A stretch of 64,000 nucleotides of DNA, taken from IMG/VR virus record IMGVR_UViG_3300011240_000038; one strand, given 5' to 3'. Shown here piece by piece: positions 2,619 to 25,032 of the stretch. A program made the position numbers and the translations under genes. Each line of letters starts with the position of its first letter. The first letter of the stretch is position 1. Source of the stretch: an uncultured virus (IMG/VR IMGVR_UViG_3300011240_000038). Its lineage: Duplodnaviria; Heunggongvirae; Uroviricota; Caudoviricetes. The notes beneath the pieces were generated by a model, which worked only from the letters and a program-made list of their open reading frames with translations, had not been told where the DNA came from and did no database searches.

Positions 2619-2834
2619 ATGGTTAATCTAAAGCTAAAAGCGTATAGAACTTTAAAATCTGTAAAACAAGAGGATATGGCTAAATTGTTGGGCATTGGAT
2701 TGAATACCTATAACTTTAAAGAAAATGGTAAAAAATCCTTCACTCTAGAAGAATCAAAAATGATTGCTGATTATTTTAATACTACGGTAGATGAACTTTT
2801 TTTTAAAGATTCGGTACGCATAATGAGTACTTAA
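2619..2834 (+). CDS. Cro-like HTH protein
   Basis: QEDMAKLLGIGLNTYNFKENGK HTH; start chosen from the RBS. Confidence 0.85.
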   Translation: MVNLKLKAYRTLKSVKQEDMAKLLGIGLNTYNFKENGKKSFTLEESKMIADYFNTTVDELFFKDSVRIMST

Positions 2835-2903
2835 TTTAGTTTATGTAGTTTTTTAAAATTAAAACAGAGTTAAATATTCTTTAACTTGAAAGAGGTGGAA
2901 ACA

Positions 2904-3113
2904 ATGGAATCACTAAAGATAAAAGAGATTAGGAAAGAAAGAAGATTATCTATATCTCAGTTAAGTCACGAAAGTGGAGTTGCAAGAGGGTATTTGAGTG
3001 AAATGGAAAGTGGTAAATACATCAATCCAAGCTTATTTGTAACTTGTAAGTTGTGTAAAGCGCTAAAAGTTGAACCTAATGATCTTATTAATAAAGAACT
3101 TTGGAAGTGGTAA
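2904..3113 (+). CDS. XRE HTH protein
   Basis: LSISQLSHESGVARGYLSEMESGK..NPS HTH. Confidence 0.85.
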   Translation: MESLKIKEIRKERRLSISQLSHESGVARGYLSEMESGKYINPSLFVTCKLCKALKVEPNDLINKELWKW

Positions 3114-3170
3114 CACAACGTAAGGCTAATGAATATATTAATTATAGTAAAAATATGCGAGGGGAACAGA

Positions 3171-3326
3171 ATGGAGTATACAATAGTACATCATTACCCA
3201 ACTAGTGAAGAGGATTTTCTTAAACATCAAGCAGAACTTATCGCAGATGTTTTATTACAAGAACTTGAACCTAATGAAATCGAATCAATTAAAAATTTAT
3301 ACACTACAGAGATAAAAGGGCAGTAA
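3171..3326 (+). CDS. Small hypothetical phage protein
   Basis: GAGGGG RBS before ATG 3171. Confidence 0.6.
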   Translation: MEYTIVHHYPTSEEDFLKHQAELIADVLLQELEPNEIESIKNLYTTEIKGQ

Positions 3327-3500
3327 TGCCTTTTATAAAAAACTTAATTTGAAAAATTTGCATAGACCTTCTCAATATATTCTATGTTGAGAACTCTAAA
3401 AGATTACTAAAATTTGAAAATTTATTAAAGTGGCTCTACGGAGGGTAAAAGTAATCAAGTGGCTCCAATGTGAGGGTAAAAATGTAATGGGGGATATATA

Positions 3501-3829: not shown

Positions 3830-5578
3830 ATGAGTCAAATTTCATTACTGAGAATAGCGAACTTTTTAGGGATTGAAGAACAAGAGATAAAAGCAGCTAA
3901 AATCAATATCCTTAGAGGACCAAATGGAGAAGGAAAGACTTCTGTAATTGAAGCACTAGAAAAGACCTTCACTAACAAAAGTAGAAGAACAGAAGTAGTA
4001 AGACATGGAACTGATGAAGCAGCATTGTATGTAGAACTTGATGATGGTTTAGAGGTAAATAGAAGAATTAGAAGTGATAAAGCAGATTATCTAAAAATAA
4101 GAAAGGCTGATGAAGGAGTACCTTCTACAGAAAAGTTTCTTAGAGATTTAGTAAATGGAAATATATTTAGGCCTTTAGATTGGGTAAATCTTTCAGTAAA
4201 AGAGCAGACTAAATCACTTCTTAGCATGTTAGAAATAGGCTGGAGCAAAGAAGATATCATTAATTGGTTTGGTGAACTCACTGACAATATAGACTATACA
4301 GAGCACATACTTATTATTTTAAAAGCCATAGAAACTAAATATTACAATGATCGTGCAGAAGTTAACAGAGAAATCAAAGAACTAGAAGCTAGGATTAAAT
4401 CAATAGTGGATGATTTGCCAGCGGAATACGACGGTGAAGAATGGAAAGATGTGAATGTCCAAGAGTATTACTCTAAGGTAAAAGAAGCGCAAGATATTAA
4501 TAAATGGATATCAGAAGCTAAAGGACTTCAAGAAAACTATAACTCAAAGGTTGAAAGTATTAAGTCTAATGCAGAAAATAAAAAGTCCAGTATTACCCTT
4601 AAGTACAATACCGAAAGAGAGGATATTAAGGATTTAGTTGCACTTTCTGAATCTAAAATAGAGAAAGCTAATAATAGCATAGAAAATGCTGATAGAGAAT
4701 TAGACCTAACTATTAGGGAACTTAAAAACAAGATTAATTGTGAGAAGGAAGGAACGTATCAAGCATATCTAAGAGATATTAAAGCTTTAGAAGAAGAAAT
4801 GAAAAAAAGGAAGGCTAATTTAGATGAAACTTATAAGTTTGCAGCTGAAGCTATAGAAAATAGCTTAAAAGAAGGTATAGATAGAGCTAAGAAAGACTCA
4901 ATAGAAATGGTGTCAGAGCAAAAGGATTTAATTTCAATTCACAAATCAAAAATAGCAGCTAAAGAACAGGAATTAATAGGACTAGAAGATAAAGAAATAG
5001 CAGAAAAGGAAGTAGTTGCGAATAATGCAACAAGTGAAATAGAGAAGGAAAAGCTTAGAATAGGTAAGGCATCTAAATACCTAGAGGAACATGAGGAAAT
5101 AGATGTTGAGCCATTACAAGAAGAAGCTAACAAGGTACAGGAAATGGTTTCTTACCTTCGTGAATGGAACAGGATATCTGAAATTAGAGATAACCAACTA
5201 GCACCTAAAGAACAGTATTCTGCATTACTTACAGAAAGAATTAATAAAGCTAGAAATCTACCAGGAGAACTTCTTAAAACTGCTAAGATGCCAATAGAAG
5301 GAATAAGCGTTGATGAAAATGGCTTAGTAAGAATTAATGGAACTTTAATAGATGGTTTATCAGATGGCGAAAAGCTTTCGCTTGCAATGAGAGTAGCTAA
5401 AGCACAGTGTGGTGAATTAAAAGTTATTTGTTTAGATCGTTTCGAGTGTTTAGATAAGGAATCTCAAGATAGGTTGCTAAAGGAAATGTCTGAGGATGAA
5501 TACCAATATTTCGTTACAGAAGTTGCAAAGACCGAAAATGGAGAAGTTGAGTTAGAAAAAATAGGGGAGGTAAGCTAA
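3830..5578 (+). CDS. SMC/Rad50-like AAA ATPase with a long coiled coil
   Basis: Walker A GPNGEGKTS, LSDGE signature, ICLD Walker B. Confidence 0.88.
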   Translation: MSQISLLRIANFLGIEEQEIKAAKINILRGPNGEGKTSVIEALEKTFTNKSRRTEVVRHGTDEAALYVELDDGLEVNRRIRSDKADYLKIRKADEGVPSTEKFLRDLVNGNIFRPLDWVNLSVKEQTKSLLSMLEIGWSKEDIINWFGELTDNIDYTEHILIILKAIETKYYNDRAEVNREIKELEARIKSIVDDLPAEYDGEEWKDVNVQEYYSKVKEAQDINKWISEAKGLQENYNSKVESIKSNAENKKSSITLKYNTEREDIKDLVALSESKIEKANNSIENADRELDLTIRELKNKINCEKEGTYQAYLRDIKALEEEMKKRKANLDETYKFAAEAIENSLKEGIDRAKKDSIEMVSEQKDLISIHKSKIAAKEQELIGLEDKEIAEKEVVANNATSEIEKEKLRIGKASKYLEEHEEIDVEPLQEEANKVQEMVSYLREWNRISEIRDNQLAPKEQYSALLTERINKARNLPGELLKTAKMPIEGISVDENGLVRINGTLIDGLSDGEKLSLAMRVAKAQCGELKVICLDRFECLDKESQDRLLKEMSEDEYQYFVTEVAKTENGEVELEKIGEVS

Positions 5579-6652
5579 GTGGAACTAAAGATAACAGGTG
5601 AAGGTAAAGTTAAATTCATAGAAAATAAAGATTTATTTACATCTGCAGAAGTTGTTTTTGACACTAGAGAAGATAGTGAAGATAGGACCAAGTGGCTCTC
5701 TCAAAGAACTAATTCTATAGGTGGTTCAGAAATAGGAGCTATAGCTGGATTTAGTAAATATGCATCACCGTTAACAGTATTCAATGACAAATTAGGATTA
5801 GTAGAAAAGTTCAAGGGTAATGTCCATACTCAATTTGGAAACAGAATGGAACCACTTATAAGAGAATGGGTTCAGGAAGATTTTAAGAAAGAAACAGAAA
5901 TTGAGCTAATAACTTATGAATATCCATACATGATGGTGGATAAAGAAATACCTTACTTCAGTGCCAATATTGATGGTGTAGGAGTCTTATCTAAAGAGTG
6001 GAGACATAGGGAGAATAGAGATACTGGAGAGTATTGGAGCATTGAAGCGAATGAGTTATTTGGACTAGAAATAAAAACAGGTTCAGAGTTTCTTAAAAAG
6101 ATGTGGGCAGGTGAAGAAGTTCCGGATAGCTATTATCTGCAGTGTCAGTGGTACATGGGAGTTACAGGACTAAAAAACTTCTTAATCATCTATATGCTAG
6201 GAAAAGAAATTAAATGGAAAGTAGTACCTAGAAATGATGATGATATAACTGCATTGAGAAATGTAGGTAAAAGTTTTTGGGAGAATAATATAATACCAAA
6301 GATACCACCTTCACCTATAGGAATCAATACAGAAACAGAGCAGATTGCAGAACAACAGGACCTAAGGGATGAAGATATTAGTTTACAGAGAGGACTTCTA
6401 TCTAAATACAAAGATATAGGAGAAAAAATTAAAGAACTAGAACAAGAACGGGAAAAGGCAAAACAAGATATATTCTTAGCTATGGGAAATGCGAAGAAAG
6501 GCTATGATGGAAGTTATAAGATTTCAAGGTTTTCAGTTAAGAAAGATAAGACAGATCTTAAACTTTTAAAAGAAAAGTACCCAGTTACTTATGAATCAAT
6601 AGTAAATGGGGTAACTGAATATATAAACCTTAGAATAACAGAAATTAAGTAG
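5579..6652 (+). CDS. YqaJ-type (lambda exonuclease family) nuclease
   Basis: WLSQR..IGGSE, ANIDG, LEIKT, YYLQCQWYM motifs. Confidence 0.92.
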   Translation: MELKITGEGKVKFIENKDLFTSAEVVFDTREDSEDRTKWLSQRTNSIGGSEIGAIAGFSKYASPLTVFNDKLGLVEKFKGNVHTQFGNRMEPLIREWVQEDFKKETEIELITYEYPYMMVDKEIPYFSANIDGVGVLSKEWRHRENRDTGEYWSIEANELFGLEIKTGSEFLKKMWAGEEVPDSYYLQCQWYMGVTGLKNFLIIYMLGKEIKWKVVPRNDDDITALRNVGKSFWENNIIPKIPPSPIGINTETEQIAEQQDLRDEDISLQRGLLSKYKDIGEKIKELEQEREKAKQDIFLAMGNAKKGYDGSYKISRFSVKKDKTDLKLLKEKYPVTYESIVNGVTEYINLRITEIK

Positions 6653-14977: not shown

Positions 14978-15055
14978 TCTAGGAATAAGGTCATATGGGA
15001 GTACTGCTGCAAGGTGGTATTCTCATATGACAATCATATAATAATGGGGGGAAGT

Positions 15056-15367
15056 ATGGGAAAAGTAATGATAAATATACCATTGACAAAATATCTTAGT
15101 GAGTTAACGAGAGAATTTGGTGGAATAAGAAAATGTTATATCACTAAAACAAAAGGTGGCCAAGTATGGTTAAGTAGTGATGCTCCTGGTGACATATCTG
15201 AGGAGGACAACGGAAAATTTAAAAATGAAATTGATTTTAGTGACTCTGATTTTTATATGAGACTTCCAAAATATGTTCATGAACATTTTAATATTAAAAA
15301 TGGTGAAATAAGGTCTTTAGAAGAGATTATTAAAGATATTAAAAAGCTAGAAAATAAGAAAGATTAA
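15056..15367 (+). CDS. Hypothetical protein
   Basis: GGGGGG RBS. Confidence 0.6.
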   Translation: MGKVMINIPLTKYLSELTREFGGIRKCYITKTKGGQVWLSSDAPGDISEEDNGKFKNEIDFSDSDFYMRLPKYVHEHFNIKNGEIRSLEEIIKDIKKLENKKD

Positions 15368-15532
15368 TTTATAAATATTATGAGAGGGCAAAAGTGAATA
15401 TTAAAAGAAGTATAGTTATTGTTTGTATCATAATAATTTTATTAACTATCAGAGTTAAAAGAGATAACGGTAATATAATAATACAATTTGGAGTTTGGCA
15501 GTTAGTAAAAGAGTTTTTAAGGGAGTAATAAA

Positions 15533-15721
15533 ATGAGTTATATAAGAATAATTACTTTTGGTGAATTTGAAGAAATTGCTGATAAGTATAATTTAATATT
15601 TCCAGAAAAGGATTGGGAAATCAGTGATTCAACACTTGGAATTATTAAAGACAAAACTTTTTATGAAATAGAAATATCAAACAAAGTAAAAGAGATTTTA
15701 TTTCAAAATCTTAATTCGTAA
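15533..15721 (+). CDS. Hypothetical protein
   Basis: AAGGGAG RBS. Confidence 0.6.
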   Translation: MSYIRIITFGEFEEIADKYNLIFPEKDWEISDSTLGIIKDKTFYEIEISNKVKEILFQNLNS

Positions 15722-15740
15722 TTCAAGAAGAGGTAAAACA

Positions 15741-15917
15741 ATGAATAAATTTGAAAAAGTAGCGTTGCAGTGTGCTAAGGATGATATAAAAAAAGGAAAT
15801 GATTTTTCAACTTTAAAGAAGTCTAAAAGAAACTATGTTGCAATATTTAAGGAAAAACAATTTCCTTTTGATAAAGTGGTTGATTTTAAAAATTGGAATA
15901 AAAAACTTCGTTGGTAA
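15741..15917 (+). CDS. Hypothetical protein (58 aa)
   Basis: AGAGG RBS; MNKFEKVALQCAKDD... Confidence 0.55.
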   Translation: MNKFEKVALQCAKDDIKKGNDFSTLKKSKRNYVAIFKEKQFPFDKVVDFKNWNKKLRW

Positions 15918-15954
15918 CTGAGTGTAGATATTGTGATTTTGAGAGGAGTATAAA

Positions 15955-16218
15955 ATGAGTAATTTAAAAAAAGCAATTTATGTATTGCTATATGACCAGT
16001 TCGATATACCAGATATGGATGTAAATTGTGATGAAGAAACTTATATTGATTATGTCATAGATGCATTAATTCAAAAAAATGATAATACTTGTCCTTTTAA
16101 AAATTATAGTTGCGAGGGAGTATGCAGTAAAAGCATTGAAGAATGTAATCAGGGGATTTACATTGATTGTGGTAGAGATAAAGAGGAAGTGTGGAAAGAA
16201 TTTATAGAAATAGATTAA
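15955..16218 (+). CDS. Hypothetical Cys-rich acidic protein
   Basis: GAGGAG RBS. Confidence 0.6.
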   Translation: MSNLKKAIYVLLYDQFDIPDMDVNCDEETYIDYVIDALIQKNDNTCPFKNYSCEGVCSKSIEECNQGIYIDCGRDKEEVWKEFIEID

Positions 16219-16253
16219 TTCATAATTCAATTTTTAATCTAGGAGGAAGAATA

Positions 16254-16616
16254 ATGGAAAATAATAATATAGAAAATGGAATGAGAGTTTATTTTGATGG
16301 AGATAGCGAATGGTACGCTAGTCCTTGGGATATCGAAGAAACAAAGAAATGGGCAGTTAAAGAATATGGATATGGTGAGGATTTAGAGTTTGAAGAATGC
16401 GACTTGAATAATGATTGTATGTGGCTTACAACAAAAGAAGAAAAGTATATAAAAGCACTTGGAGATTATGATGAACAATGCAATGGTGGCATTGGAGATT
16501 TAAGAAAAAGCCGTAATGAGGAAGGAGCAGTTGATAGGTTAACAAGTTTTAGAGAAGTATTAAAAGAAAATGGATTTTCTAAACAACCTTATGAAATTGC
16601 TTCAACTAATTATTAA
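16254..16616 (+). CDS. Hypothetical acidic protein
   Basis: AGGAGG RBS. Confidence 0.65.
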   Translation: MENNNIENGMRVYFDGDSEWYASPWDIEETKKWAVKEYGYGEDLEFEECDLNNDCMWLTTKEEKYIKALGDYDEQCNGGIGDLRKSRNEEGAVDRLTSFREVLKENGFSKQPYEIASTNY

Positions 16617-16664
16617 TTCACAATTCAAATAGAGGTTGTAGGTATTGAGAAATAAGGTGATAGG

Positions 16665-17201
16665 ATGAATGTACTATATGAACAAAGCAAAATTAACAAT
16701 AAAGATCATGTGGAGACTCCAAGATGGGTGGTGGAAAATATATATGATCTAATAGATATAAAATCATTTAAAAATATATGGTTTCCATTTAACAACTACG
16801 ATAGTGAATTCAAATTAAAAGGTGATGAACTTAGGTTAAAATATAAGGCTACTCACATTTTTGACAATTTAGGAAATGATTTTTTTAAAACAGAACCACC
16901 AAAGGGATGTGAGTTACTTATAAGCAACCCACCTTTTAGCAACCAAAATGAAATTATATCTAGAAGTTTTGAACTTGTAGATAGCGGTAAAGTTAAATCA
17001 TTTGTTCTATTACTTCCTTTGGCAACTTTAGAAACGGAAACAAGAGCTAATATGTATGAGCAACACAGGGAAGGTCTTTCAATATTAATTTTTAAAAAAA
17101 GAATTAAATTTAAAGGATGCTCACAGGTCTTTAATAGAGGTTGTTGTTGGATATGCTACAACATTCCAGCATTGAAGAATAAAAAAATTAATTGGGTGTA
17201 A
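16665..17201 (+). CDS. Small phage N6-adenine methyltransferase-like protein
   Basis: ETPRWVV, IWFPF, DFF, ISNPPFS, LLLP motifs. Confidence 0.7.
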   Translation: MNVLYEQSKINNKDHVETPRWVVENIYDLIDIKSFKNIWFPFNNYDSEFKLKGDELRLKYKATHIFDNLGNDFFKTEPPKGCELLISNPPFSNQNEIISRSFELVDSGKVKSFVLLLPLATLETETRANMYEQHREGLSILIFKKRIKFKGCSQVFNRGCCWICYNIPALKNKKINWV

Positions 17202-17225
17202 GTAGTAATAGGACAACCCTATGTT

Positions 17226-17283
17226 CTTATGTAAATTGTTCTTTGAAAATTGAATAGTACGGTGTTGGGAAATATGCTATTAT
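17226..17283 (+). promoter_or_regulatory. Left cassette element 1: boxA-like sequence, anti-terminator arm, extended -10 promoter
   Basis: CTTATGTAAATTGTTCTTTGAAAATTGAATAGTACGGTGTT is 40/41 identical to 21396-21436; TGcTATTAT at 17275-17283. Confidence 0.7.
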
Positions 17284-17416
17284 ATGTATGTAGATAGAAA
17301 AATATATTGCATAATAGTATTAAATTATATTCGTTAAAGAGGAATTTGATATTGGGTAAAGTTCGCATTATGGAATGATGGAAAGTAAAATAAAAATATT
17401 TTGAGGGAGGTACAAA

Positions 17417-19399
17417 ATGAGTTTGACTGATGAACAAATAATACAGATATTAATTGATTATGTAAAAGATAGTAGATATAAACAAGCAGTTTTAATTGAT
17501 GGAGAATGGGGTTCGGGAAAAACTTTTTTTGTTGAAGAAAAATTGCAGAGCAGATTAAATGAGGAGCTTTCTGAGAATTCGATTTTCTATATTTCACTCT
17601 ATGGATTAGATAACTTTGCACAAATCATGGATGAAATTTATTCAATAGCATTTGAAGATTATTTTGACAAAAAGCTAGGAGATGGAAAAGGAGAAAAGCT
17701 AGGAAAAGGACTAAAATTTACATCTAAAATACTTTCGGTTGGGTTAAAGCATTTTAATATTGATTCTAAGGATTTACCGTCGTTATCTGATATTAAGCAA
17801 ATCAAAGACACTATAATTATTTTTGATGACCTTGAAAGATGTAACATTGATGTTAATCAATTACTCGGCTTTATCAATAATTTAGTTGAACACAACAATA
17901 TTAAAGTTATTCTTATAGCTAATCAAACTGAGATAGGGAGAATAGGAATTTCAAAAGATTTACCACAGAAATATTCAGTTGTGTTAGATTCTAGAATTCT
18001 TTTAGATGAAGTAAAAAATGATACGAAATATAACCAAAGTGAAAATCTTTTTAATGAAGTAAAAAATGATACGAAATATAACCAAAGCGAAGAGAAAGAA
18101 AACATCAGTAAAGAAAAGCTTATTTATCGAACTAAAAAACTTTTTTCTGATGACATTTCATATAAGGAAAGAAAAGAAAAGTTAATTGGACTTACGATAT
18201 ATTATCAAGCTGATTTTGTTGCTATTTATGAAGATATTGTAGAAAAGTATGTGGAAGATGAACAAACAAAAGAACAATTGAACAATTATAAGCAAGTTGT
18301 ATTAGAAATTTTCGAAAAAAATCAACATCATAATATTCGTACATTAATATTTGCATTAATGGCTTATGAAAGATTTTTTGTAATTCTCGATACGATTGAT
18401 TTTGAGCCTAAAAAGTATTTAAACGAACAGAAAGAAAAAGTTTTAGAATATACAATAGAATTGTCTATTCAAATTAAACAAGGAAAATCAGAATATTCAT
18501 GGGAAAGTACAGAGGATCAAACAGGAAATATTTATTGGCGTGAGGGTAACTTTGTAAAAAGTATATTTGCATATAAATTTGTAGATACTTATCTCGTACA
18601 TCATTATTGGGATTCAGATGAAATTAAAAAAATTATAAAATCAATTATGGAGGAAGAGAAAGAAAAAGATGATCATCTTATTACGGAAAAATCATTAGGA
18701 TACAATAAATTATATTCCTGGTGGGAATTAGAAGATGAAGAAATAATTCAAGTTCTTTCACAAATTAAAGATGAACTTGCTACGAGAAAATACAATCCTC
18801 GTTATTTTAAAGATATGATAGTTAGATTTATTCAAATCAAATATGCCGAATTCGATGAAATGAAATATGATGAACATATTTCATTAATGAAAAGTAATTT
18901 GGAAGAATACACTGATACTTTTGAAAAGCGCTATCTTGAAATATTAAGTAGTGATTCAGAATTTTTAAATAAATACAATGATTTGGTAAAACCTCTATTT
19001 AATGTAATTGATAGAAAAGAAAAAGAGAGTAAAGAAAAACTCAACTGTTTTCTTAATGATGTAAAAGAATGGGATGATGAGTTTGTTAGTAAGTGTAGAG
19101 ATAACAGATCAACTTATATAATGGATAAAAAGTTTTTCTTTTATATGGATATTGATAATGTTATAAAAAAATTAAAGACATCCCATGTAAAAGGGATATA
19201 CTTTTTTATAAACGGAATAAATGAAGTGTATAGTTTTTCAAATTTGGAGGAGTTTTTTAAGGCTGATATTTCTAATATACAAAATTTAATAGATAAAATG
19301 GATATAGAAGAATTAAGTAAAAGCAAGCGTACTCGGAAAAAAGCACTCATTGCGTTACAAGAAAAACTACAACAATCATTGAAGCTTATTAAAAGGTAA
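17417..19399 (+). CDS. KAP-family P-loop NTPase (moron, likely anti-phage/exclusion)
   Basis: LIDGEWGSGKTFF, YISLYG, IIIFDDLERC, EKLIG, NIRT motifs. Confidence 0.85.
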   Translation: MSLTDEQIIQILIDYVKDSRYKQAVLIDGEWGSGKTFFVEEKLQSRLNEELSENSIFYISLYGLDNFAQIMDEIYSIAFEDYFDKKLGDGKGEKLGKGLKFTSKILSVGLKHFNIDSKDLPSLSDIKQIKDTIIIFDDLERCNIDVNQLLGFINNLVEHNNIKVILIANQTEIGRIGISKDLPQKYSVVLDSRILLDEVKNDTKYNQSENLFNEVKNDTKYNQSEEKENISKEKLIYRTKKLFSDDISYKERKEKLIGLTIYYQADFVAIYEDIVEKYVEDEQTKEQLNNYKQVVLEIFEKNQHHNIRTLIFALMAYERFFVILDTIDFEPKKYLNEQKEKVLEYTIELSIQIKQGKSEYSWESTEDQTGNIYWREGNFVKSIFAYKFVDTYLVHHYWDSDEIKKIIKSIMEEEKEKDDHLITEKSLGYNKLYSWWELEDEEIIQVLSQIKDELATRKYNPRYFKDMIVRFIQIKYAEFDEMKYDEHISLMKSNLEEYTDTFEKRYLEILSSDSEFLNKYNDLVKPLFNVIDRKEKESKEKLNCFLNDVKEWDDEFVSKCRDNRSTYIMDKKFFFYMDIDNVIKKLKTSHVKGIYFFINGINEVYSFSNLEEFFKADISNIQNLIDKMDIEELSKSKRTRKKALIALQEKLQQSLKLIKR

Positions 19400-19449
19400 G
19401 GCTTTTAATATATTATGAAGTTAAAATAAAAAATTAAATTCAATCTAGT

Positions 19450-19490
19450 ACCGTACTATTCAGAAATGAATATGCGGTGTTTTTTTATTC
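19450..19490 (+). terminator. Right cassette element 1: intrinsic terminator
   Basis: ACCGTACTATTCA-GAAA-TGAATATGCGGT followed by GTTTTTTT. Confidence 0.8.
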
Positions 19491-19595
19491 GATTTTAATG
19501 AAATGAAGAAGGAAATAGGTTATGAAGTTAATAGATTTTTTAGAGAAATATATATTTACAAGTGATGAAAGAAAGAAGAAAAAGAAGGTGATTAA

Positions 19596-20090
19596 GTGAT
19601 TTTAGCAATAGATCCAGGGAACATTGAAAGTGGATATGCATTAATAAACAAAAATACCTTGAAACCTTTAGAAATAGGGAAAATAGCCAATGATGATTTA
19701 TTAAATAAATGTGGAAATGGTGATTTTGGAGAATGTAAGTATATTGCTATCGAAATGATTGCAAGTAATGGAATGCCAGTAGGAAAAACAGTGTTTGATA
19801 CATGCTTCTGGATAGGAAGATTTTATGACAGGCTGATTTATGAACTTGATATAGAACCAAAGCTTATTTATAGAGAAAATGAAAAGATAAATCTATGTGG
19901 AACTAAAAGAGCCAAGGACAGCAATATAATACAGGCCTTAGTAGATAGGTTTGCACCTTATACAAGTAATAAGGGTAAAGGTACTAAGAAAGAGCCAGGA
20001 TGGTTTTATGGATTTAAAAAGGATATATGGCAGGCATACGCTGTGGGTGTGACTTATTATGATATGTATTTGAAGGAGGAGATAAAATGA
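19596..20090 (+). CDS. RuvC-like Holliday junction resolvase
   Basis: ILAIDPG..ESG, IAIE, WIGRF, DIWQAYAVG. Confidence 0.75.
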   Translation: MILAIDPGNIESGYALINKNTLKPLEIGKIANDDLLNKCGNGDFGECKYIAIEMIASNGMPVGKTVFDTCFWIGRFYDRLIYELDIEPKLIYRENEKINLCGTKRAKDSNIIQALVDRFAPYTSNKGKGTKKEPGWFYGFKKDIWQAYAVGVTYYDMYLKEEIK

Positions 20091-20365
20091 GTAACTGTAA
20101 ATATGATTTTGGGGTTTTTAATGATGGGCATGAAGTAACAAATATAGTAGGCGTAGTAGAGCTTTTTAAGGATAAAGAGAAATTCTTAAAAGCTTGTTAT
20201 GCAAATTATGCGGATGTTATAAAAGATAAAACATTTACTGTTGATGATGTAAGAGAAGGTCAAATAAGATATTTACCTAGAGGTAAGGATGGCAATGGAA
20301 GTGGATATTATCTTGTAAGTGGAAGAATGAAAGGCTCTTCAGATGTTTATTATATAGATTTATAA
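20087..20365 (+). CDS. Hypothetical protein
   Basis: AGGAGG RBS; overlaps the upstream stop. Confidence 0.65.
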   Translation: MSNCKYDFGVFNDGHEVTNIVGVVELFKDKEKFLKACYANYADVIKDKTFTVDDVREGQIRYLPRGKDGNGSGYYLVSGRMKGSSDVYYIDL

Positions 20366-20479
20366 AATAATAATTAATTTGGGTGATAAGTACTACTATG
20401 AAGAAAATTAAGGATAGACCGAGGGTGAAGGAATAATTTGTAGGTAGTGTGAAATAACCATGTTGGTGAGGTCAACAAA

Positions 20480-20971
20480 ATGGTAGATAGAAAGGAAGTA
20501 TTGAGAATGAGTATTTATAAGGTAGGTAAATGTGATTATTGTGGAGAAGAAAATATAATATTAAGACCAACTCCATTTATGGTAGATAGAGATGCTATGA
20601 TGTGTGAATATTGCTGGGATATAACACAAAAAGGATATGGAGCATCTAACGGAGAGTATATTCCAGATTTTCAAAGTGAAAAAGTAGAATATCAAGATGC
20701 TATTAAATTAAGAGCGATAGACTTATTCAATCAAATGCAAATAGAAGAAGTTTCAGCAGCGTGTGGAGAGATAGAATATATTTTAGTTTTAAGGAATGAT
20801 AAAAACATAGGAATATTAAAAGAAATTGGATTTACTGATAATGAAATCAACGAAGAATGTTATTCGGAAGAAAATAGTGTATACATGGATATATCTTCTA
20901 TAGCCTTTAAATATGCTGATGGATTTAATGGTAAAACAAATAAATTCTATGTGAATGAAAGATTATTCTAA
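20480..20971 (+). CDS. Hypothetical protein with N-terminal CxxC pairs
   Basis: ORF track; start may be 20507. Confidence 0.6.
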   Translation: MVDRKEVLRMSIYKVGKCDYCGEENIILRPTPFMVDRDAMMCEYCWDITQKGYGASNGEYIPDFQSEKVEYQDAIKLRAIDLFNQMQIEEVSAACGEIEYILVLRNDKNIGILKEIGFTDNEINEECYSEENSVYMDISSIAFKYADGFNGKTNKFYVNERLF

Positions 20972-21000
20972 TTCACAAACCCAGGAGTGAAGGTGATAAA

Positions 21001-21345
21001 TTGAAGAATGAACAACTTTCATTTTTAGAACTAAAAGAAAAACTTATTGAAGAGCATAAAATTATTGAAAAGCATGAAGTATATGATGCAACTATATGTG
21101 GTAGATGTTACTGTGAAAAGTGCAAATACAATGCTGAATCAAGATACTTTAGTGAAAATGAAACGAAGGCAGCATGGAGAAAATATGAACTCTGTTTTAA
21201 CTGTGATGATTGCTTTTATTATGGTATGGATGATGAAAGCTTAAGCAAAAACATAGTTAGATTTGAGTGTGAAAGGTTTGAAATGTTAGATTATTATGCA
21301 GAGCTTGAAGCAAAAAGGAAGAGAAAAAGTTTTAAAATAATTTAG
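21001..21345 (+). CDS. Cys-rich hypothetical phage protein
   Basis: AAGGTGA RBS, CGRCYCEKC and CFNCDDC. Confidence 0.65.
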   Translation: MKNEQLSFLELKEKLIEEHKIIEKHEVYDATICGRCYCEKCKYNAESRYFSENETKAAWRKYELCFNCDDCFYYGMDDESLSKNIVRFECERFEMLDYYAELEAKRKRKSFKII

Positions 21346-21371
21346 TTTGCAATTTAAAGAAAGTCAGAACC

Positions 21372-21454
21372 AAGGATGTAGGGTAACCTTGCATCCTTAT
21401 ATAAATTGTTCTTTGAAAATTGAATAGTACGGTGTTTAAATTAAGTGATATAAT
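21372..21454 (+). promoter_or_regulatory. Left cassette element 2: GNRA hairpin, boxA-like sequence, anti-terminator arm, extended -10 promoter
   Basis: AAGGATGTAGG-GTAA-CCTTGCATCCTT hairpin, then TTGTTCTTTGAAAATTGAATAGTACGGTGTT; TGaTATAAT at 21446-21454. Confidence 0.7.
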
Positions 21455-21516
21455 TATAGTAATATAATTGAAAATAAATCGTGATTAAAAGATAGTGCAT
21501 ACAAGGGAGATATGAA

Positions 21517-22608
21517 ATGGGAAATAGTATTGTTGAAAAATTTATTAAAAGGTTCCATAAGAGTCAAATTCAAAATAATAATTGCGAAATAGAAACATGT
21601 AACATGAGTAAATATGAATGGGAAAATATCAATAAAGAAATAGAGTATTTGTATGAAGATGCGTTTGATGGTATAGAAGAGGTATACTTTGGTATTGAAA
21701 TTGAATTCCAACTTTCGGAAAGAACAGTAAATGGAGATGATATAGTAAATTTACTAAAAAAATATGGTATATCGGTCAATACAAATGTTATTGAAGATAG
21801 AAGTGAGACAAGGGAGTATAATAACTGGCAAGTTATGAAAGAATCAACATGTGACTGGGAAGTTATTTCTCCAATTCTAAATGATACTGATAGATGTTGG
21901 AAAGAACTTCAAGAAGTATGTAATGTATTAAAAAAACAATTAAAAGCAACTGTTGATGAAAATTGTGCAATTCATTTGCATATACAAAGAGAGCCATTGC
22001 TACGCACTGGAAATGATTATGTGAAACTAATGAAGTTGTATAGGTATTTAGAACCGTTTACATATGCAGTTTCAGCTGGTGAAGAATCTGAAATTTCCTT
22101 AACTCGAACAAAGAAATATGCTGCTACACTTAAATTTGCTGATGAAAATTTATGGACTAAAGGAGTAAAGCAAAATGAAATACTCGAAGAAATCAAAAAT
22201 GGTAATCTTGAATTAATTAATTATTACTTTTTTACACGTCTTTTAGGATTAAGCTTTTCAACTGCAAGTACGGAATTTAGAACTGTTGAATTCCGCACTT
22301 TTAATGGAACATTAAACCCTATAGCAATTCAGTCATATGTAATATATGTGGTAAATATGATTAATGCGGCTGTGAAAAATGATTTTATTGAAGAGTATCA
22401 TGGGCAAATATTTGGAACTGGAAAAGTTGGAAAAGTGCTTGAAAAGGAATATATTAATAAATGTTTATCGCTTTTAGCTAAAAATGAGAATCAAAGGGAC
22501 AGATTTGTAAGACCATTAATAAGGAATAATTATACTATTTCCCAAACCTTACATGATGCGTTAAACGGAAAATACACGAAAGAAGAGGAAAACTTTTTTT
22601 TCATATAG
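21517..22608 (+). CDS. Putative amidoligase (COOH-NH2 ligase type 2) moron
   Basis: FGIEIEF, WEVISPIL, CAIHLH, TVEFRTFNGT motifs. Confidence 0.85.
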   Translation: MGNSIVEKFIKRFHKSQIQNNNCEIETCNMSKYEWENINKEIEYLYEDAFDGIEEVYFGIEIEFQLSERTVNGDDIVNLLKKYGISVNTNVIEDRSETREYNNWQVMKESTCDWEVISPILNDTDRCWKELQEVCNVLKKQLKATVDENCAIHLHIQREPLLRTGNDYVKLMKLYRYLEPFTYAVSAGEESEISLTRTKKYAATLKFADENLWTKGVKQNEILEEIKNGNLELINYYFFTRLLGLSFSTASTEFRTVEFRTFNGTLNPIAIQSYVIYVVNMINAAVKNDFIEEYHGQIFGTGKVGKVLEKEYINKCLSLLAKNENQRDRFVRPLIRNNYTISQTLHDALNGKYTKEEENFFFI

Positions 22609-22657
22609 TTAATTCATTTTAATATAAATTATTCATATAATTAAATAGTTTATTTTT

Positions 22658-22700
22658 AACACCGTACTATTCAAAATGAATATGCGGTATTTTTTTATTC
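22658..22700 (+). terminator. Right cassette element 2: intrinsic terminator
   Basis: ACCGTACTATTCA-AAA-TGAATATGCGGT followed by ATTTTTTT; near-identical to 19450-19490. Confidence 0.8.
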
Positions 22701-22789
22701 AAATTGAGGGGTTGATATATATAAATAAAATTACAGAATATAATCAATTATAGATGATATTTTTAATTGGTAAATGGGAGTGATAAAAC

Positions 22790-23092
22790 ATGGGTAAGAA
22801 TATCATTCAAGATGAAGATATAAAGACTTTTCAGGCTATAATGGAAGAGTTCAAAGGACTCCAGGACACAGAATACGATAAAGCTTATGAACTACACAAA
22901 GTTGCATTAAGTGCTTACGATAGATGGAGTACAATCTTGTTTGAAACTAGACAAGCTGAATGGAAGGGGAAGGATCCAGCACTTAAAGAAAGAATTAAGC
23001 AAGTACTTGATATGTTAGATAAGGTTTATACATCAGCGAGAATGGTGTGGGGAAGAAGTAAAACAGATTATGATAACAAAAGTAGATATTAG
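22790..23092 (+). CDS. Hypothetical protein
   Basis: GGGAGTG RBS. Confidence 0.65.
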   Translation: MGKNIIQDEDIKTFQAIMEEFKGLQDTEYDKAYELHKVALSAYDRWSTILFETRQAEWKGKDPALKERIKQVLDMLDKVYTSARMVWGRSKTDYDNKSRY

Positions 23093-23107
23093 CAATAGGG
23101 GGATATT

Positions 23108-23521
23108 ATGAGTAATACTTTAGATAGAATAAAGAAATATAAAGAACTTAAAGCTGATATAGTTGATATTAATATAAGAATGGAAGAGTTAGAAGAAGAG
23201 GTTGTGGGAATAAGTGCACAACCTCAAGGTGAGAGAACATCACAGACATACAAAATAACTTCTAGTGTAGAGCAACAAGCAGAAAAGCTAATGGAAAAGA
23301 AGGATGAACTTCTTAAAATAAAAGCTGGCAAGGAAAGGGAATTAGATAGAATAGATAATGCACTAACAGTATTAACAGATGAAGAAAGAGATATAATAGA
23401 AACCGTATATATAGAACATAAAAAGTATTGGAAACTAGAAGAAAGACTAAATAAAACATATGCTAGATTAAAGCAAATAGAGAAAGTAGCCATTAGGAAG
23501 ATGTCAAAGTATATACCATAG
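23108..23521 (+). CDS. ArpU/RinA-like late transcriptional activator (sigma region 4-like)
   Basis: KITSSVEQ, IDNAL..L..EERDII, C-terminal HTH; last early gene before packaging. Confidence 0.8.
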   Translation: MSNTLDRIKKYKELKADIVDINIRMEELEEEVVGISAQPQGERTSQTYKITSSVEQQAEKLMEKKDELLKIKAGKERELDRIDNALTVLTDEERDIIETVYIEHKKYWKLEERLNKTYARLKQIEKVAIRKMSKYIP

Positions 23522-23544
23522 TACAACTTCAAGAGAACAACAAT

Positions 23545-23577
23545 AAAAACTATAGAAAAACTATAGAAAAACTATAA
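23545..23577 (+). repeat. 11-bp tandem repeat AAAAACTATAG x3, putative late-activator site
   Basis: Directly downstream of the activator gene. Confidence 0.6.
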
Positions 23578-23681
23578 GAAATCAATATATGCATATGAGA
23601 TAATTGTATTAGGTTAAATAGTAACCAAGAGTTTTTCAACATTACTTCCCCTTTTTAAAATAATGTGAACAACCCCAATGT

Positions 23682-23713
23682 AAAAGACATCTATAGAAAT
23701 ATAGGTGTCTTTT
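23682..23713 (+). terminator. Intrinsic terminator-like hairpin
   Basis: AAAAGACATCTATA-GAAA-TATAGGTGTCTTTT. Confidence 0.7.
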
Positions 23714-23761
23714 ATTGTTATATTTTAGAAGGTGTTGTAAAATATTTATGGGGGTGGGGAT

Positions 23762-24772
23762 ATGAATAATGAAAAAATAGTTTTAATTAGGGATACACTG
23801 GTTATAATATCAACTATTATTACTCTATTCACAATATTTGTAAAAATATTTTCTAATATATTTAAAGAAAGCATTAAAAGTAAGTTTAAATATGTTCCTG
23901 AGGATGATTCGTTGTTTAATTTAATATTACAAATGCTAGCGCATATCATTAGTTCAGGATTGTATCTTTTAGTTATAGTTGTTTCAGCATTAACTATTTA
24001 TATTTATATAAAGAATGGATCTACAATTAGTGATGTGCTATCTAGCTTTAAATATATTGAGAAAAATAAAACTGACCTATTTGCCGATAGAATATTTTAT
24101 ATACAGTTAGTAATAGTATTTGTAGTAACATTTTGCTTTATCAATTGCTATGAAAGGGTTAAAAATGAATTCGTCAGAAAATTTAGTGGGGTAAAGTGGG
24201 TTAAATCAAAGAGAAAAGGCATAAAAATATGGATGCCAAATAAAAAAGTCAATATAAGAAGATTGAAATGGTATAATAGAATCACTAAGTTTGGTTCATC
24301 AATTATTAGTTTTTTTTATGCATTTATGTTCTTTATAGCTATTATGAGTAATGAAAAAATATCTTATTCAGCTACATTAAGTGGAATATTTCTAATATGT
24401 GCATACCTAGCGATTCTAATAATTGCTGTTAGCTTAGATGAAATTATAGAAGTTATTGCTTATTATAATAAATATGAATTTATTTTAGATGGTGAAAAAG
24501 TTATTTGTGAATGCTTCTTAGAGTATAAGCAACATTATCTAATTTATGAATCTAAGTTAGTTAATGGACATAATAACATTGAGAGATATATTAGAAAGAA
24601 TGAAGTTAAAGAAATTAGAAAAATTTGTGGAGATAAAATTGTATATAATAAAACTAAGAGGTCTATTAAGGATAGAAAAACTAAGAAATCTGTTAAAGAA
24701 ATTATAAATACATTAATAAAAAAAGATAAAAGTAGTTTTATAAATAATACAAATAAAGATTTAGAATCCTAA
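23762..24772 (+). CDS. Multi-pass membrane protein (moron)
   Basis: About 5 hydrophobic segments; very AT-rich; hairpin plus T-run after the stop. Confidence 0.7.
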   Translation: MNNEKIVLIRDTLVIISTIITLFTIFVKIFSNIFKESIKSKFKYVPEDDSLFNLILQMLAHIISSGLYLLVIVVSALTIYIYIKNGSTISDVLSSFKYIEKNKTDLFADRIFYIQLVIVFVVTFCFINCYERVKNEFVRKFSGVKWVKSKRKGIKIWMPNKKVNIRRLKWYNRITKFGSSIISFFYAFMFFIAIMSNEKISYSATLSGIFLICAYLAILIIAVSLDEIIEVIAYYNKYEFILDGEKVICECFLEYKQHYLIYESKLVNGHNNIERYIRKNEVKEIRKICGDKIVYNKTKRSIKDRKTKKSVKEIINTLIKKDKSSFINNTNKDLES

Positions 24773-24807
24773 TTACAGGGTTCTTTTTTATTTAGTAAAA
24801 AGGTGGT

Positions 24808-25032
24808 GTGAATATGCTAAATATCTATACAAGCTACATATGTAGAGGATGCAGTAGAGAATTTATATTGATAACTTCAGAGGTGCAAAATGCTATTAGT
24901 ACAGGTAAGTATTTAGCATGTCCATATTGTGGGAATAAGAGAATAAGAAAAGAATTGGCTACAGATGACCTTAGAGAAGTAATGAAGTCTAGAAGATATA
25001 AGAGGGTAAATGGTGCAATACATCAGAAATAA
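24808..25032 (+). CDS. Small zinc-ribbon phage protein
   Basis: CRGC...CPYC. Confidence 0.7.
   Translation: MNMLNIYTSYICRGCSREFILITSEVQNAISTGKYLACPYCGNKRIRKELATDDLREVMKSRRYKRVNGAIHQK

Follow-up and report, generated by a model that had tools for sequence, protein, structure and literature searches.

Two cargo sockets in a Clostridium prophage belong to a mobile cassette family with ends resembling the ribosomal RNA leader

Two cassettes in the early operon of a prophage

The window analysed here is a stretch of 64,000 nucleotides from an uncultured virus (IMG/VR record IMGVR_UViG_3300011240_000038). It carries a Clostridium prophage with two cargo genes that are co-directional with the early operon. 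The features are as follows (T7, run of seven T).

1–1596, −: serine integrase
2059–2439, −: CI-like
2592–2834, +: Cro-like
17198–17230, +: hairpin 5′ of boxA, cassette 1, boxB-like position (RNAfold)
17237–17249, +: boxA-like 13-mer, cassette 1 (identity with rrn spacer boxA; rrn leader match)
17251–17266, +: arm, cassette 1 (complementary to 19449–19462 and onwards)
17275–17283, +: predicted extended −10 promoter-like motif, cassette 1 (read from sequence)
17417–19399, +: cargo 1, KAP P-loop NTPase, 660 aa (Pfam PF07693, E 2.9e-12)
19450–19486, +: terminator 1 (5′ strand 19450–19462, loop 19463–19466, 3′ strand 19467–19478, T7 19480–19486)
19523–20090, +: small ORF and Holliday-junction resolvase gene (resolvase 19596–20090)
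21344–21358, +: remnant of a right cassette end (X box), without a terminator before it (homology to other junctions)
21372–21398, +: hairpin 5′ of boxA, cassette 2 (RNAfold; alignment of the hairpin class)
21407–21419, +: boxA-like 13-mer, cassette 2 (window motif search; rrn spacer and leader match)
21421–21436, +: arm, cassette 2 (perfect complement of 22658–22673)
21446–21454, +: predicted extended −10 promoter-like motif, cassette 2 (read from sequence)
21517–22608, +: cargo 2, Amidoligase_2 protein, 363 aa (Pfam PF12224, E 8e-13; PHROG 2443)
22658–22696, +: terminator 2 (5′ strand 22658–22673, loop 22674–22676, 3′ strand 22677–22688, T7 22690–22696)
23108–23521: sigma-like gene
from 26167: terminase

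The left elements form direct repeats (17209–17266 and 21379–21436; 58 nt, 86% identity), and the final 41 nt agree at 40 of 41 positions, so that the repeat described in the sequence-only reading was found again, as were the bulged terminators. When up to three mismatches are allowed, a 19-mer within it has exactly two occurrences in the window (17236–17254 and 21406–21424); shuffles averaged 0.16 occurrences, and 0 of 100 reached two. The arm 14-mer is exact at 17251–17264 and 21421–21434 on the + strand. In both cassettes the extended −10 motif lies 24–25 nt downstream of the arm start, in agreement with the proposed spacing of about 25 nt. TTGAAT within the arm was considered as a −35 element and rejected, being 22–23 nt from the −10 and thus too far away. 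The pre-boxA hairpins of the two cassettes belong to one class (eight alignable sequences, 8-bp stem), and a hairpin is situated 8–13 nt 5′ of boxA in every junction class inspected by eye. Positions 21341–21457 are homologous to junctions in two further loci, L025 and L033, where a terminator precedes the X box.

Both terminators are predicted to fold into a stem, a single-base 5′ bulge, a second stem and then T7, with hairpin energies of −13.2 kcal/mol (terminator 1, which has one G·U pair besides its 5′-strand bulge) and −10.9 kcal/mol (terminator 2). The reverse complement of the arm 14-mer is found at 22660–22673 without mismatch and at 19449–19462 with one. Perfect complementarity extends over 13 bp in cassette 1 and 16–17 bp in cassette 2, which bears out the 13 and 16 bp originally read. 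When G·U pairs are allowed, duplexfold predicts 18 pairs at −24.8 kcal/mol for cassette 1 and 17 pairs at −25.8 kcal/mol for cassette 2, in each case well below the energy of the corresponding hairpin.

The socket holds at least six different cargoes in related phages, as expected if it accepts variable genes, and the breakpoints of the swaps coincide with the inner edges of the arm and of the terminator. These breakpoints fit homologous exchange, and the prophage itself encodes RecT and YqaJ. The small ORF at 19523 begins 37 nt past the T-run of terminator 1, and the intervening stretch is conserved in four phages with different cargo. Because little room for a promoter is left after terminator 1, the small ORF and the resolvase gene probably depend on read-through.

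A horizontally shared family of mobile cassettes

Both sockets belong to a large cassette family that is shared horizontally among Clostridium, phages and plasmids. Exact 24–27-mers were found in 6 stretches of IMG/VR and in 32 genome stretches representing many named Clostridium species. A degenerate 23-mer, allowing at most one mismatch, matched 60 of 130 Clostridium-genus genomes, whereas the reversed control pattern had 0 matches in these 130; it also matched 7 of 401 genomes in a class-wide sample, 98 IMG/VR stretches and 21 Clostridium plasmid records. From 5′ to 3′, a full cassette begins with a short end box and a hairpin, continues with a boxA of the rRNA type, an arm of 13–17 nt directly behind it and usually a promoter, and then contains a single variable gene (in rare cases two; the largest ORF has a median length of 156 aa). 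It closes with a terminator and a right end box that is an inverted repeat of the left one. The terminator carries one bulged base on its 5′ strand, and the arm complements this strand including the bulged base. Among 206 terminators, the minimum free energy fold had exactly one 5′-strand bulge in 109 and a perfect stem in 16. The promoter is predicted to be usually present: the extended −10 class lies 12–14 nt after the arm in 106 of 209 members. The motifs had been expected to occur as pairs around variable genes, and a left element indeed precedes 52 of 56 viral and 117 of 144 genomic terminators at the loci examined, which, as for all family counts, were ascertained through the left element.

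The cassettes are mobile units with sharp boundaries, as seen in a sequence comparison of 11 cassette pairs from different genomes that share cargo at 66–98% identity. With at least 400 nt of non-homologous flank available on each side, homology in these pairs begins 4–41 nt before boxA and ends 33–55 nt past the terminator start. Cargo 1 also matches the PADLOC candidate system PDC-S49 (E 1.9e-55) over nearly its full length, and a PADLOC search with cargo 2 gave no match. The idea of defence cargo has a candidate in the KAP NTPase, but the family's cargo is mostly of other kinds (GNAT acetyltransferases, hydrolases, small membrane proteins).

On chromosomes the cassettes form head-to-tail arrays, one of which packs 6 left elements and 7 terminators into 5.5 kb. 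Array cargo includes GNAT, glyoxalase, isochorismatase and NUDIX proteins and one chloramphenicol acetyltransferase, which are cargo kinds of chromosomal integrons. Several observations would suit elements acting on DNA: the small accessory genes stand in arrays, the units are discrete and sharply bounded in different genomes, and the ends show inverted repeats both between arm and terminator strand and between the end boxes, with covariation inside a cassette. The ends would then be terminal repeats or recombination sites moved by a recombinase or transposase in trans, or as folded single-stranded DNA in the manner of an integron attC, and their overlap with transcription signals would be secondary. 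A base bulging from an imperfect palindrome is also reminiscent of the extrahelical bases in attC sites. We consider this reading improbable. No recombinase was consistently nearby at the cassette loci examined; in one cassette-carrying Clostridium genome (G002) the array sits between housekeeping genes and has nothing but an IS3 copy inside it, and none of four tyrosine-recombinase matches lies within about 90 kb of the cassette clusters. No target-site duplication was seen in the 10 boundary pairs inspected, the breakpoints of phage cargo swaps fit homologous exchange, and the boxA identity with rrn, described below, would be left unexplained. Compared with integron arrays (attC/IntI) and Acinetobacter pdif modules, the cassettes likewise are small single-gene units in tandem, bounded by conserved imperfect palindromes, common to several replicons and similar in cargo classes. 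In contrast to both, each Clostridium cassette carries a terminator and a predicted promoter of its own, the boundaries are transcription signals, and neither an integron integrase nor another dedicated recombinase lies next to the cassettes.

Covariation between arm and terminator within a cassette

Across 138 pairs of an arm and its downstream terminator, the own-pair score was 14.95 of 16 compared to 14.57 ± 0.04 after shuffling, and 0 of 5000 shuffles reached it. Shuffling within genomes gave p = 0.0004; the within-genome effect is modest, with 13.63 versus 13.43 Watson-Crick pairs (Wilcoxon p = 0.03). Fisher tests associated arm position 7 with the bulged base (3.6e-5) and gave 4e-9 for position 9 and 1.4e-4 for position 14, all in the complementary direction; because the cassettes are related by descent, these p-values overstate the number of independent events. 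A set of 68 new viral pairs replicated the result (p = 2e-4, 4e-8 and 4e-4). Arm and terminator of the same cassette thus covary, as had been predicted.

It might be argued that the complementarity is a by-product without function, for instance if the arm were a degenerate copy of one half of a terminator. The left element would then simply bind a protein or act like an UP element upstream of the promoter, and common descent would account for the conserved terminator. The element does lie at about −28 to −53 from the predicted −10, in the zone of activators and UP elements, and the arm sequence does resemble terminator 3′ strands. However, the arm has an extra base pairing with the bulge, which is absent from terminator 3′ strands and covaries with the bulge. 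Furthermore, the covariation of the arm is with the downstream terminator, whereas the adjacent upstream terminator showed no association (n = 54, p 0.13–1.0), and the match to rrn is to the transcribed leader, not to the promoter. We regard such a by-product as very unlikely.

The mismatches on the sense strand were G·U in 161 and A·C in 56 instances (49 and 8 in the viral replication set), which would be unexpected for double-stranded protein-binding sites and argues against action at the DNA level. Folding energies favour the arm duplex over the terminator hairpin in 128 of 138 cassettes.

Likeness to the rRNA leader and candidate read-through

The sequence-only reading had noted a resemblance to the Firmicute rrn boxA, and the similarity turned out to be stronger than claimed: the boxA 13-mer is identical to the 16S–23S spacer boxA in 10 of 10 rrn operons of G002. 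In the rrn leader of a cassette-carrying Clostridium, the order is promoter, hairpin, 8 nt, boxA and then a stretch; boxA and the following bases agree with the cassette at 20 of 22 positions. This stretch is predicted to pair with sequence immediately 3′ of 16S (−54.2 kcal/mol), and in the rrn operon it forms the 16S leader–trailer helix. The boxA 13-mer and the next bases are also the most conserved columns of the left element. According to a published model, boxA anchors boxC at the exit channel and boxC pairs with the emerging trailer (PMC10250234); a preprint has the rrnTAC bridging the 5′ and 3′ ends via RNA looping (bioRxiv 10.64898/2026.03.17.712431).

We therefore propose that the cassette ends would imitate the leader–trailer helix of pre-16S rRNA. 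RNA polymerase that started upstream of the cassette (at the early lytic promoter in the case of the phage) would transcribe hairpin, boxA and arm. NusB/S10 would bind boxA and tether the arm at the exit channel, with the intervening cargo looped out, and the arm would pair with the terminator 5′ strand as soon as it emerges. Because the arm duplex is about 10 kcal/mol stronger, the hairpin could not form, and elongation would proceed into the downstream phage genes. Transcripts from the predicted cassette promoter, which lies downstream of the arm start, would contain neither boxA nor arm and would end at the terminator. If so, the cassette would be non-polar at its insertion site and insulated when expressed alone, and its conserved ends could also provide homology for cargo swapping. 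Read-through by a boxA-tethered arm is plausible from the sequence features, and we give the whole scheme a probability of roughly one half (0.5).

The placement of viral cassettes suggests a need for read-through: 51 of 58 are co-directional between same-strand genes, a terminator lies just upstream in only 4 of 85, and the next same-strand ORF begins at most 60 nt past the T-run in 29 of 67. Several points count against the mechanism. Complexes of the rrn-type boxA chiefly oppose Rho-dependent termination, and the arm would have to beat a hairpin whose second strand follows only 3–4 nt later. A strict extended −10 motif within 67 nt is missing from 65 of 209 left elements, A·C or transversion mismatches occur in the arm of 5–10% of cassettes, and inverted-repeat ends are equally expected of a DNA-level mobile element. 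In arrays, the left element follows the previous terminator by about 60–100 nt (54 of 209), which leaves the arm there with no obvious transcription from upstream to serve. The frame is real but not phage-specific; because cassettes also occur in chromosomal arrays and on plasmids, a logic of lysogenic versus lytic transcription cannot fully explain why they exist.

Alternatively, arm, terminator 5′ strand and outer end boxes may form a leader–trailer-like helix serving RNA processing or stability, either as an RNase III site that excises the cargo from a polycistronic transcript or as a 5′–3′ clamp, and read-through would have other causes, for instance leakiness of the bulged terminator or a factor from the phage. 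In both sequence and architecture the cassette agrees with the rrn leader, the helix of which is the RNase III substrate (PMC10250234), and covariation and G·U bias suit any RNA helix. Complementarity between the outer end boxes of one cassette also exceeds that of random pairs (−6.8 versus −5.7 kcal/mol, p = 7e-5), and because the right one is transcribed only after the terminator is passed, they lie outside the termination decision. We nevertheless consider a processing role unlikely. Because its helix must contain the terminator 5′ strand, helix and terminator are mutually exclusive anyway; the helix is only 13–18 bp in the window cassettes, which lack an intact right end box; and no reason is given for an arm-matched bulged base left unmatched within the terminator.

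The proposed read-through device resembles the rrn boxB–boxA–boxC array, the pre-16S leader–trailer helix and the rrnTAC with NusA/B/E/G in that a hairpin and boxA are directly followed by the 5′ strand of a long-range helix, with a partner 0.3–2.7 kb downstream (median 0.7 kb). Covariation around a conserved sequence with many G·U exchanges is likewise described for boxC by Warner et al. (PMC10250234). Unlike rrn, the cassette loops out a protein-coding gene with its own predicted promoter, which lies downstream of the signal; its 'trailer' strand doubles as the upstream half of an intrinsic terminator, Nus binding is putative, and the unit is mobile and multi-copy. As in lambda-type nut/N (or Q) antitermination, a boxA-containing cis RNA signal lies in an early operon, but no N- or Q-like factor was identified, and the signal is repeated per cassette with a sequence-specific complement of its own terminator. 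A moron is a promoter–gene–terminator unit inserted in a phage operon; the cassettes likewise lie between conserved operon genes and vary in cargo at a fixed position, although the same cassettes occur outside phages. As in transcription attenuators (T-box, trp, riboswitches), an upstream strand would compete for the terminator 5′ strand through a helix that is predicted to be more stable and is backed by covariation. The cassette competitor, however, is separated by a translated gene rather than lying within about 100 nt, and there is no ligand or tRNA sensor; the proposed input is the position of the transcript start.

Two cassettes in the early operon of a Clostridium prophage

Both cassettes proved to be built as the sequence-only reading had described, and they lie within one plus-strand early operon of ~21 kb. 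The last 41 nt of the two left elements are identical at 40 of 41 positions, and an extended −10 follows in each cassette, 24–25 nt downstream of the arm start. The features are:

17209–17266, + strand: left element of cassette 1 (with the boxA-like 13-mer and the arm)
17251, + strand: start of the arm 14-mer, cassette 1
17417–19399, + strand: cargo of cassette 1, a KAP P-loop NTPase
19450–19486, + strand: terminator 1
21379–21436, + strand: left element of cassette 2
21421, + strand: start of the arm 14-mer, cassette 2
21517–22608, + strand: cargo of cassette 2, an Amidoligase_2 protein
22658–22696, + strand: terminator 2

The arm 14-mer is exact at both positions, and its reverse complement is present in the 5′ strand of both terminators (1 and 0 mismatches), as had been claimed; folding also reproduced the single bulged base in the 5′ strand and the G·U pair of either terminator. 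The hairpins (12-bp stems with the bulge, then T7) have folding energies of −13.2 and −10.9 kcal/mol and the form of intrinsic terminators, and both went unreported by the simple terminator scanner because it allows no bulge. The arm duplexes comprise 18 and 17 pairs (−24.8 and −25.8 kcal/mol). The 19-mer core of the left element has exactly two copies in the window at ≤3 mismatches versus 0.16 expected. The whole window matched no Rfam family at gathering thresholds, and neither positions 15000–25000 (megablast) nor the 65-nt left element (blastn) matched the GenBank phage collection.

The window is a prophage with a serine integrase, a CI/Cro pair, YqaJ/RecT, a resolvase, a sigma-like regulator and a terminase. 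Its KAP NTPase matches the PADLOC candidate defence system PDC-S49 over the full length (E 1.9e-55; residues 4–656 to profile positions 5–614 of 624) and is a candidate defence gene on the basis of this profile. The gene contains a 48-nt tandem duplication (17995–18090, 92% identical), by which 16 codons are duplicated in frame. The ORF directly upstream of cassette 1 (16665–17201) matches only positions 208–371 of the 458-position PHROG 799 DNA-methyltransferase profile and may be either a piece of a methyltransferase or a domain that stands alone. The related locus L188 has it at 97.6% identity; homology to this stretch is absent from the relatives L003, L173 and L174.

Distribution, cargo and exchange of the cassettes

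The sockets of the window are members of a cassette family and no peculiarity of this phage. Sought in genomes and phages, as had been proposed from the sequence, pairs of left element and terminator enclosing variable genes were found widely in Clostridium. An exact 27-mer is present in six IMG/VR stretches, and named Clostridium genomes contain an exact 24-mer in 32 stretches. At ≤1 mismatch, a degenerate 23-mer occurs in 60 of 130 Clostridium genomes (reversed control pattern: 0), in 7 of 401 genomes of a class-wide sample (2 of the 7 from the genus) and in 98 IMG/VR stretches. With blastn, the 65-nt left element matches 21 Clostridium plasmid records; these matches fall between genes, in DNA without annotation, on C. 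butyricum megaplasmids and on C. argentinense, C. sporogenes, C. botulinum and C. estertheticum plasmids.

Pooling the window with 136 fetched genome loci gave 209 distinct left elements, 138 of which lead to a family terminator with no other left element in between. The distance between the two, with a median of 694 nt in genomes (range 55–2720) and of 887 nt in viral contigs, is unlike that of attenuator-type antiterminators, whose competing strand lies tens of nucleotides from the terminator. When the terminator is defined more strictly, a left element lies ≤3.5 kb upstream of 117 of 144 family terminators from genomes and of 52 of 56 from viral loci; these figures are biased upward because the loci were chosen via the left element. 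Across the whole genome of Clostridium sp. MB05, 15 of 19 exact 13-mers fall within clusters holding left elements. This genome also has a lone, diverged left element with an extended −10 behind it and no array around it (L045, G002:C1:3157600–3157900), so the family is larger than strict-pattern counts suggest.

Chromosomal cassettes are arranged head to tail, one array containing six left elements and seven terminators in 5.5 kb flanked by ordinary genes. The MB05 array is interrupted by the insertion of an IS3-family element with rve and HTH_Tnp_2 ORFs (L040:1122–2473). The cargo is diverse, with 132 distinct largest ORFs among 134 cassettes (median 156 aa). About half of 129 cargo ORFs have no Pfam family; the others include ~15 GNAT acetyltransferases as well as alpha/beta hydrolases, HD, NUDIX, glyoxalase, isochorismatase, YcxB, deaminase, GmrSD and one chloramphenicol acetyltransferase. 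The last is full length (Pfam CAT, E 1.6e-114) in a chromosomal cassette of the Clostridium genome G039 (L093, G039:C1; locus 2814–3473, minus strand), so the cassette pool includes a resistance gene.

Eleven cassette pairs from different genomes share cargo that is 66–98% identical within unrelated flanks. Homology starts 4–41 nt before boxA and ends 33–55 nt past the terminator start, so that the unit takes in boxA and the arm on the left, the whole terminator on the right and a short end box on each side. The two end boxes of a cassette are inverted repeats of each other and pair better than random combinations (−6.8 versus −5.7 kcal/mol, p = 7e-5); between neighbouring cassettes, the complementarity of end boxes or junction hairpins was not significantly above that of random pairs (p = 0.10).

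The cassettes correspond to phage morons, units with a promoter and terminator of their own that form variable content between conserved phage genes: they carry extended −10 motifs as predicted promoters and terminators, and six cargo sets were found upstream of the same resolvase gene, with L188 sharing the upstream flank instead.

Cargo in the shared socket (L-numbers denote fetched loci)
L003: 186 aa
L188: 249 aa
L173 (reverse strand, locus 4001–6240): 257 + 402 aa, two ORFs between one left element and one terminator
L174: 282 aa
L157: 301 aa
Window: 660-aa KAP NTPase

The two ORFs of L173 indicate that one cassette can hold more than one gene. We considered L211, with a resolvase gene lacking an upstream cassette, as an empty socket and rejected it; a different small gene and a GC hairpin are present there, and the site is not cleanly empty.

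Among the relatives, homology stops at the inner edge of the arm (window 17266/17267) and restarts at or just before the terminator (window 19411–19449), and an exchange of cargo by homologous recombination via the conserved ends would fit these limits; the phage-encoded RecT and YqaJ may take part. A rival explanation of the repeats is that they are DNA recombination ends. With regard to a TIR transposon or MITE, the end boxes are inverted repeats, no transposase was identified, and 10 boundary pairs showed no target-site duplication. A dedicated recombinase beside the arrays was rejected: no tyrosine recombinase occurs at the MB05 array or within ~90 kb of any MB05 cassette cluster, and in G039 some lie 2–20 kb from cassettes, inconsistently. 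The cassettes differ in this from integrons, in which IntI and attI adjoin an array of promoterless cassettes ending in attC; here, no tyrosine recombinase is near and the cassettes have predicted promoters.

The left element, the rRNA leader and pairing with the terminator

The left element mimics the rrn leader. Its boxA-like 13-mer is the 16S–23S spacer boxA of all 10 rrn operons in MB05, and the leader boxA differs from it at one position, boxA and the following bases matching the cassette at 20 of 22. By this identity with the rrn boxA of the host group, the 13-mer is of the rRNA type in sequence and a putative NusB/S10 site. The MB05 rrn leader runs from promoter to hairpin, 8 nt, boxA and then directly a cassette-like stretch, which pairs with sequence just 3′ of 16S as a leader–trailer helix (−54.2 kcal/mol). 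In MB05 (rrn operon L043; leader 373930–374000, spacer 375650–375690), the leader boxA itself lies within the 16S leader–trailer helix and a second boxA precedes 23S.

In the cassettes, a hairpin lies 8–13 nt upstream of boxA, and its sequence varies among junction classes. Eight aligned copies of the window class have an 8-bp stem, only one of whose eight pairs is changed on both sides, and we dropped a covariation claim for this hairpin because one two-sided change is too few. Conservation within the left element is highest in the boxA columns, which have no complementary partner at the terminator; this suggests a sequence-specific ligand, for which NusB/S10 would be the obvious candidate. 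We set aside a CodY-type operator overlapping boxA, since it would leave the arm/terminator covariation unexplained; it also mismatches the CodY consensus at 4 of 15 positions. TTGAAT in the arm was discarded as a −35, its spacing to the −10 being 22–23 nt.

Arm and own terminator covary in the genomic set and in a separate viral set, as the sequence-only reading had predicted. Own pairs are complementary at 14.95 of 16 positions versus 14.57 ± 0.04 after shuffling (0 of 5000 shuffles reached the observed value), and three variable arm positions associate with the terminator, all in the complementary direction.

Association of arm positions with the terminator; p-values overstate independence, the cassettes being related by descent
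Position 7 (G/A) with the bulged C/T: G:C 22, G:T 46, A:C 3, A:T 62; Fisher p 3.6e-5
Position 9: A:T 94, A:C 5, G:T 18, G:C 19; Fisher p 4e-9
Position 14: Fisher p 1.4e-4

Nothing within the terminator pairs with the bulged base, so an indirect effect of the hairpin cannot account for the covariation of this base with the arm. The arm showed no association with the immediately upstream terminator, which belongs to the neighbouring cassette (n = 54; p = 0.13, 1.0 and 0.13). On the sense strand, wobble-compatible mismatches numbered 161 versus 56 A·C. All of these results recurred in the viral set of 85 new left elements, of which 68 have terminators, with p = 2e-4, 4e-8 and 4e-4, complementarity of 14.71 versus 14.11 ± 0.07, and G·U 49 versus A·C 8. 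The excess of complementarity persists when shuffling is confined to single genomes, where the effect is small (13.63 versus 13.43 ± 0.06 Watson–Crick pairs, p = 0.0004; Wilcoxon p = 0.03), and mismatched cassettes exist. The covariation in both sets demonstrates a pairing constraint; a rival explanation, judged improbable, is that the complementarity has no function. Adjoining boxA, pairing distally and covarying with its partner, the arm fits a helix of the rrn leader–trailer type. The arm duplex is stronger than the terminator hairpin in 128 of 138 cassettes, and terminator stems are typically imperfect, with exactly one 5′ bulge in 109 of 206 and a perfect stem in 16 of 206.

Predicted read-through and its consequences

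In viral contigs, the genes on both sides of the cassette are on the same strand in 51 of 58 cases, and transcription of boxA, which sits upstream of the cassette's own predicted promoter, is therefore likely to come from upstream. A family terminator lies just upstream of the left element in only 4 of 85 viral cases, and in 29 of 67 viral cassettes the next same-strand ORF starts ≤60 nt past the T-run. The 37-nt spacer that separates the T-run of terminator 1 from a small ORF leading to the resolvase gene is conserved between the window and three relatives and leaves little room for a promoter.

We infer a mechanism in which the fate of a transcript depends on its origin. Polymerase entering from upstream would transcribe the hairpin, boxA and the arm; Nus factors would tether the arm at the RNA exit channel, and the arm would seize the 5′ strand of the terminator on its emergence, so that transcription goes on. 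Transcripts begun at the cassette's predicted promoter would lack the arm and terminate. The published basis is the boxA/boxC and 16S trailer model, here transferred to a terminator (PMC10250234; bioRxiv preprint 10.64898/2026.03.17.712431). The chromosomal arrays are only partly explained, as the arm there could matter only for polymerases leaking past the previous terminator. The rRNA-like helix might instead serve RNase III processing or RNA stability; this explanation and that of DNA recombination ends are both compatible with conditional read-through.

A further-reaching reading, to which we assign a probability of roughly 0.35, is that a pool of single-gene expression cassettes, lacking an integrase, is common to Clostridium, its phages and its plasmids, and that the cassette ends mimic the leader and trailer of pre-16S rRNA. 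Each cassette would draw on the rRNA machinery for antitermination and RNA looping to make its own terminator conditional on transcript origin, and would be insertable in any operon without polarity and insulated when expressed alone. If true, morons would have a general way of sparing their carriers harm, in the form of an antiterminator that is tethered by protein and acts over kilobases. Mobile DNA would then put the RNA looping of the rRNA antitermination complex to a use other than making ribosomes, namely the control of an intrinsic terminator kilobases away; this would explain accessory genes with their own terminators inside essential phage operons. For a Gram-positive genus the pool would be an integron-like store of accessory genes, common to chromosomes, plasmids and phages and including the candidate defence gene and the chloramphenicol acetyltransferase cassette, and the two short ends (~60 and ~45 nt) would offer a compact portable part for non-polar gene insertion.

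The components are already known, namely boxA/Nus, leader–trailer helices, antiterminator/terminator competition, morons and cassette arrays. In literature listings and abstracts, a coverage that excludes subscription journals, we found no description of these cassettes as a family, nor of an antiterminator next to boxA that acts over kilobases. Whatever the mechanism, the family and its covarying ends are new and well-defined annotation objects.

Downstream of both window terminators lies the sigma-like regulator. Just 3′ of its gene are three to four 11-nt direct repeats, and behind them stands a conventional terminator with a 16-bp stem, the strongest in the region (window 23541–23584 and 23680–23715 for the whole feature); the repeats may serve as an array of binding sites where early genes give way to late ones.
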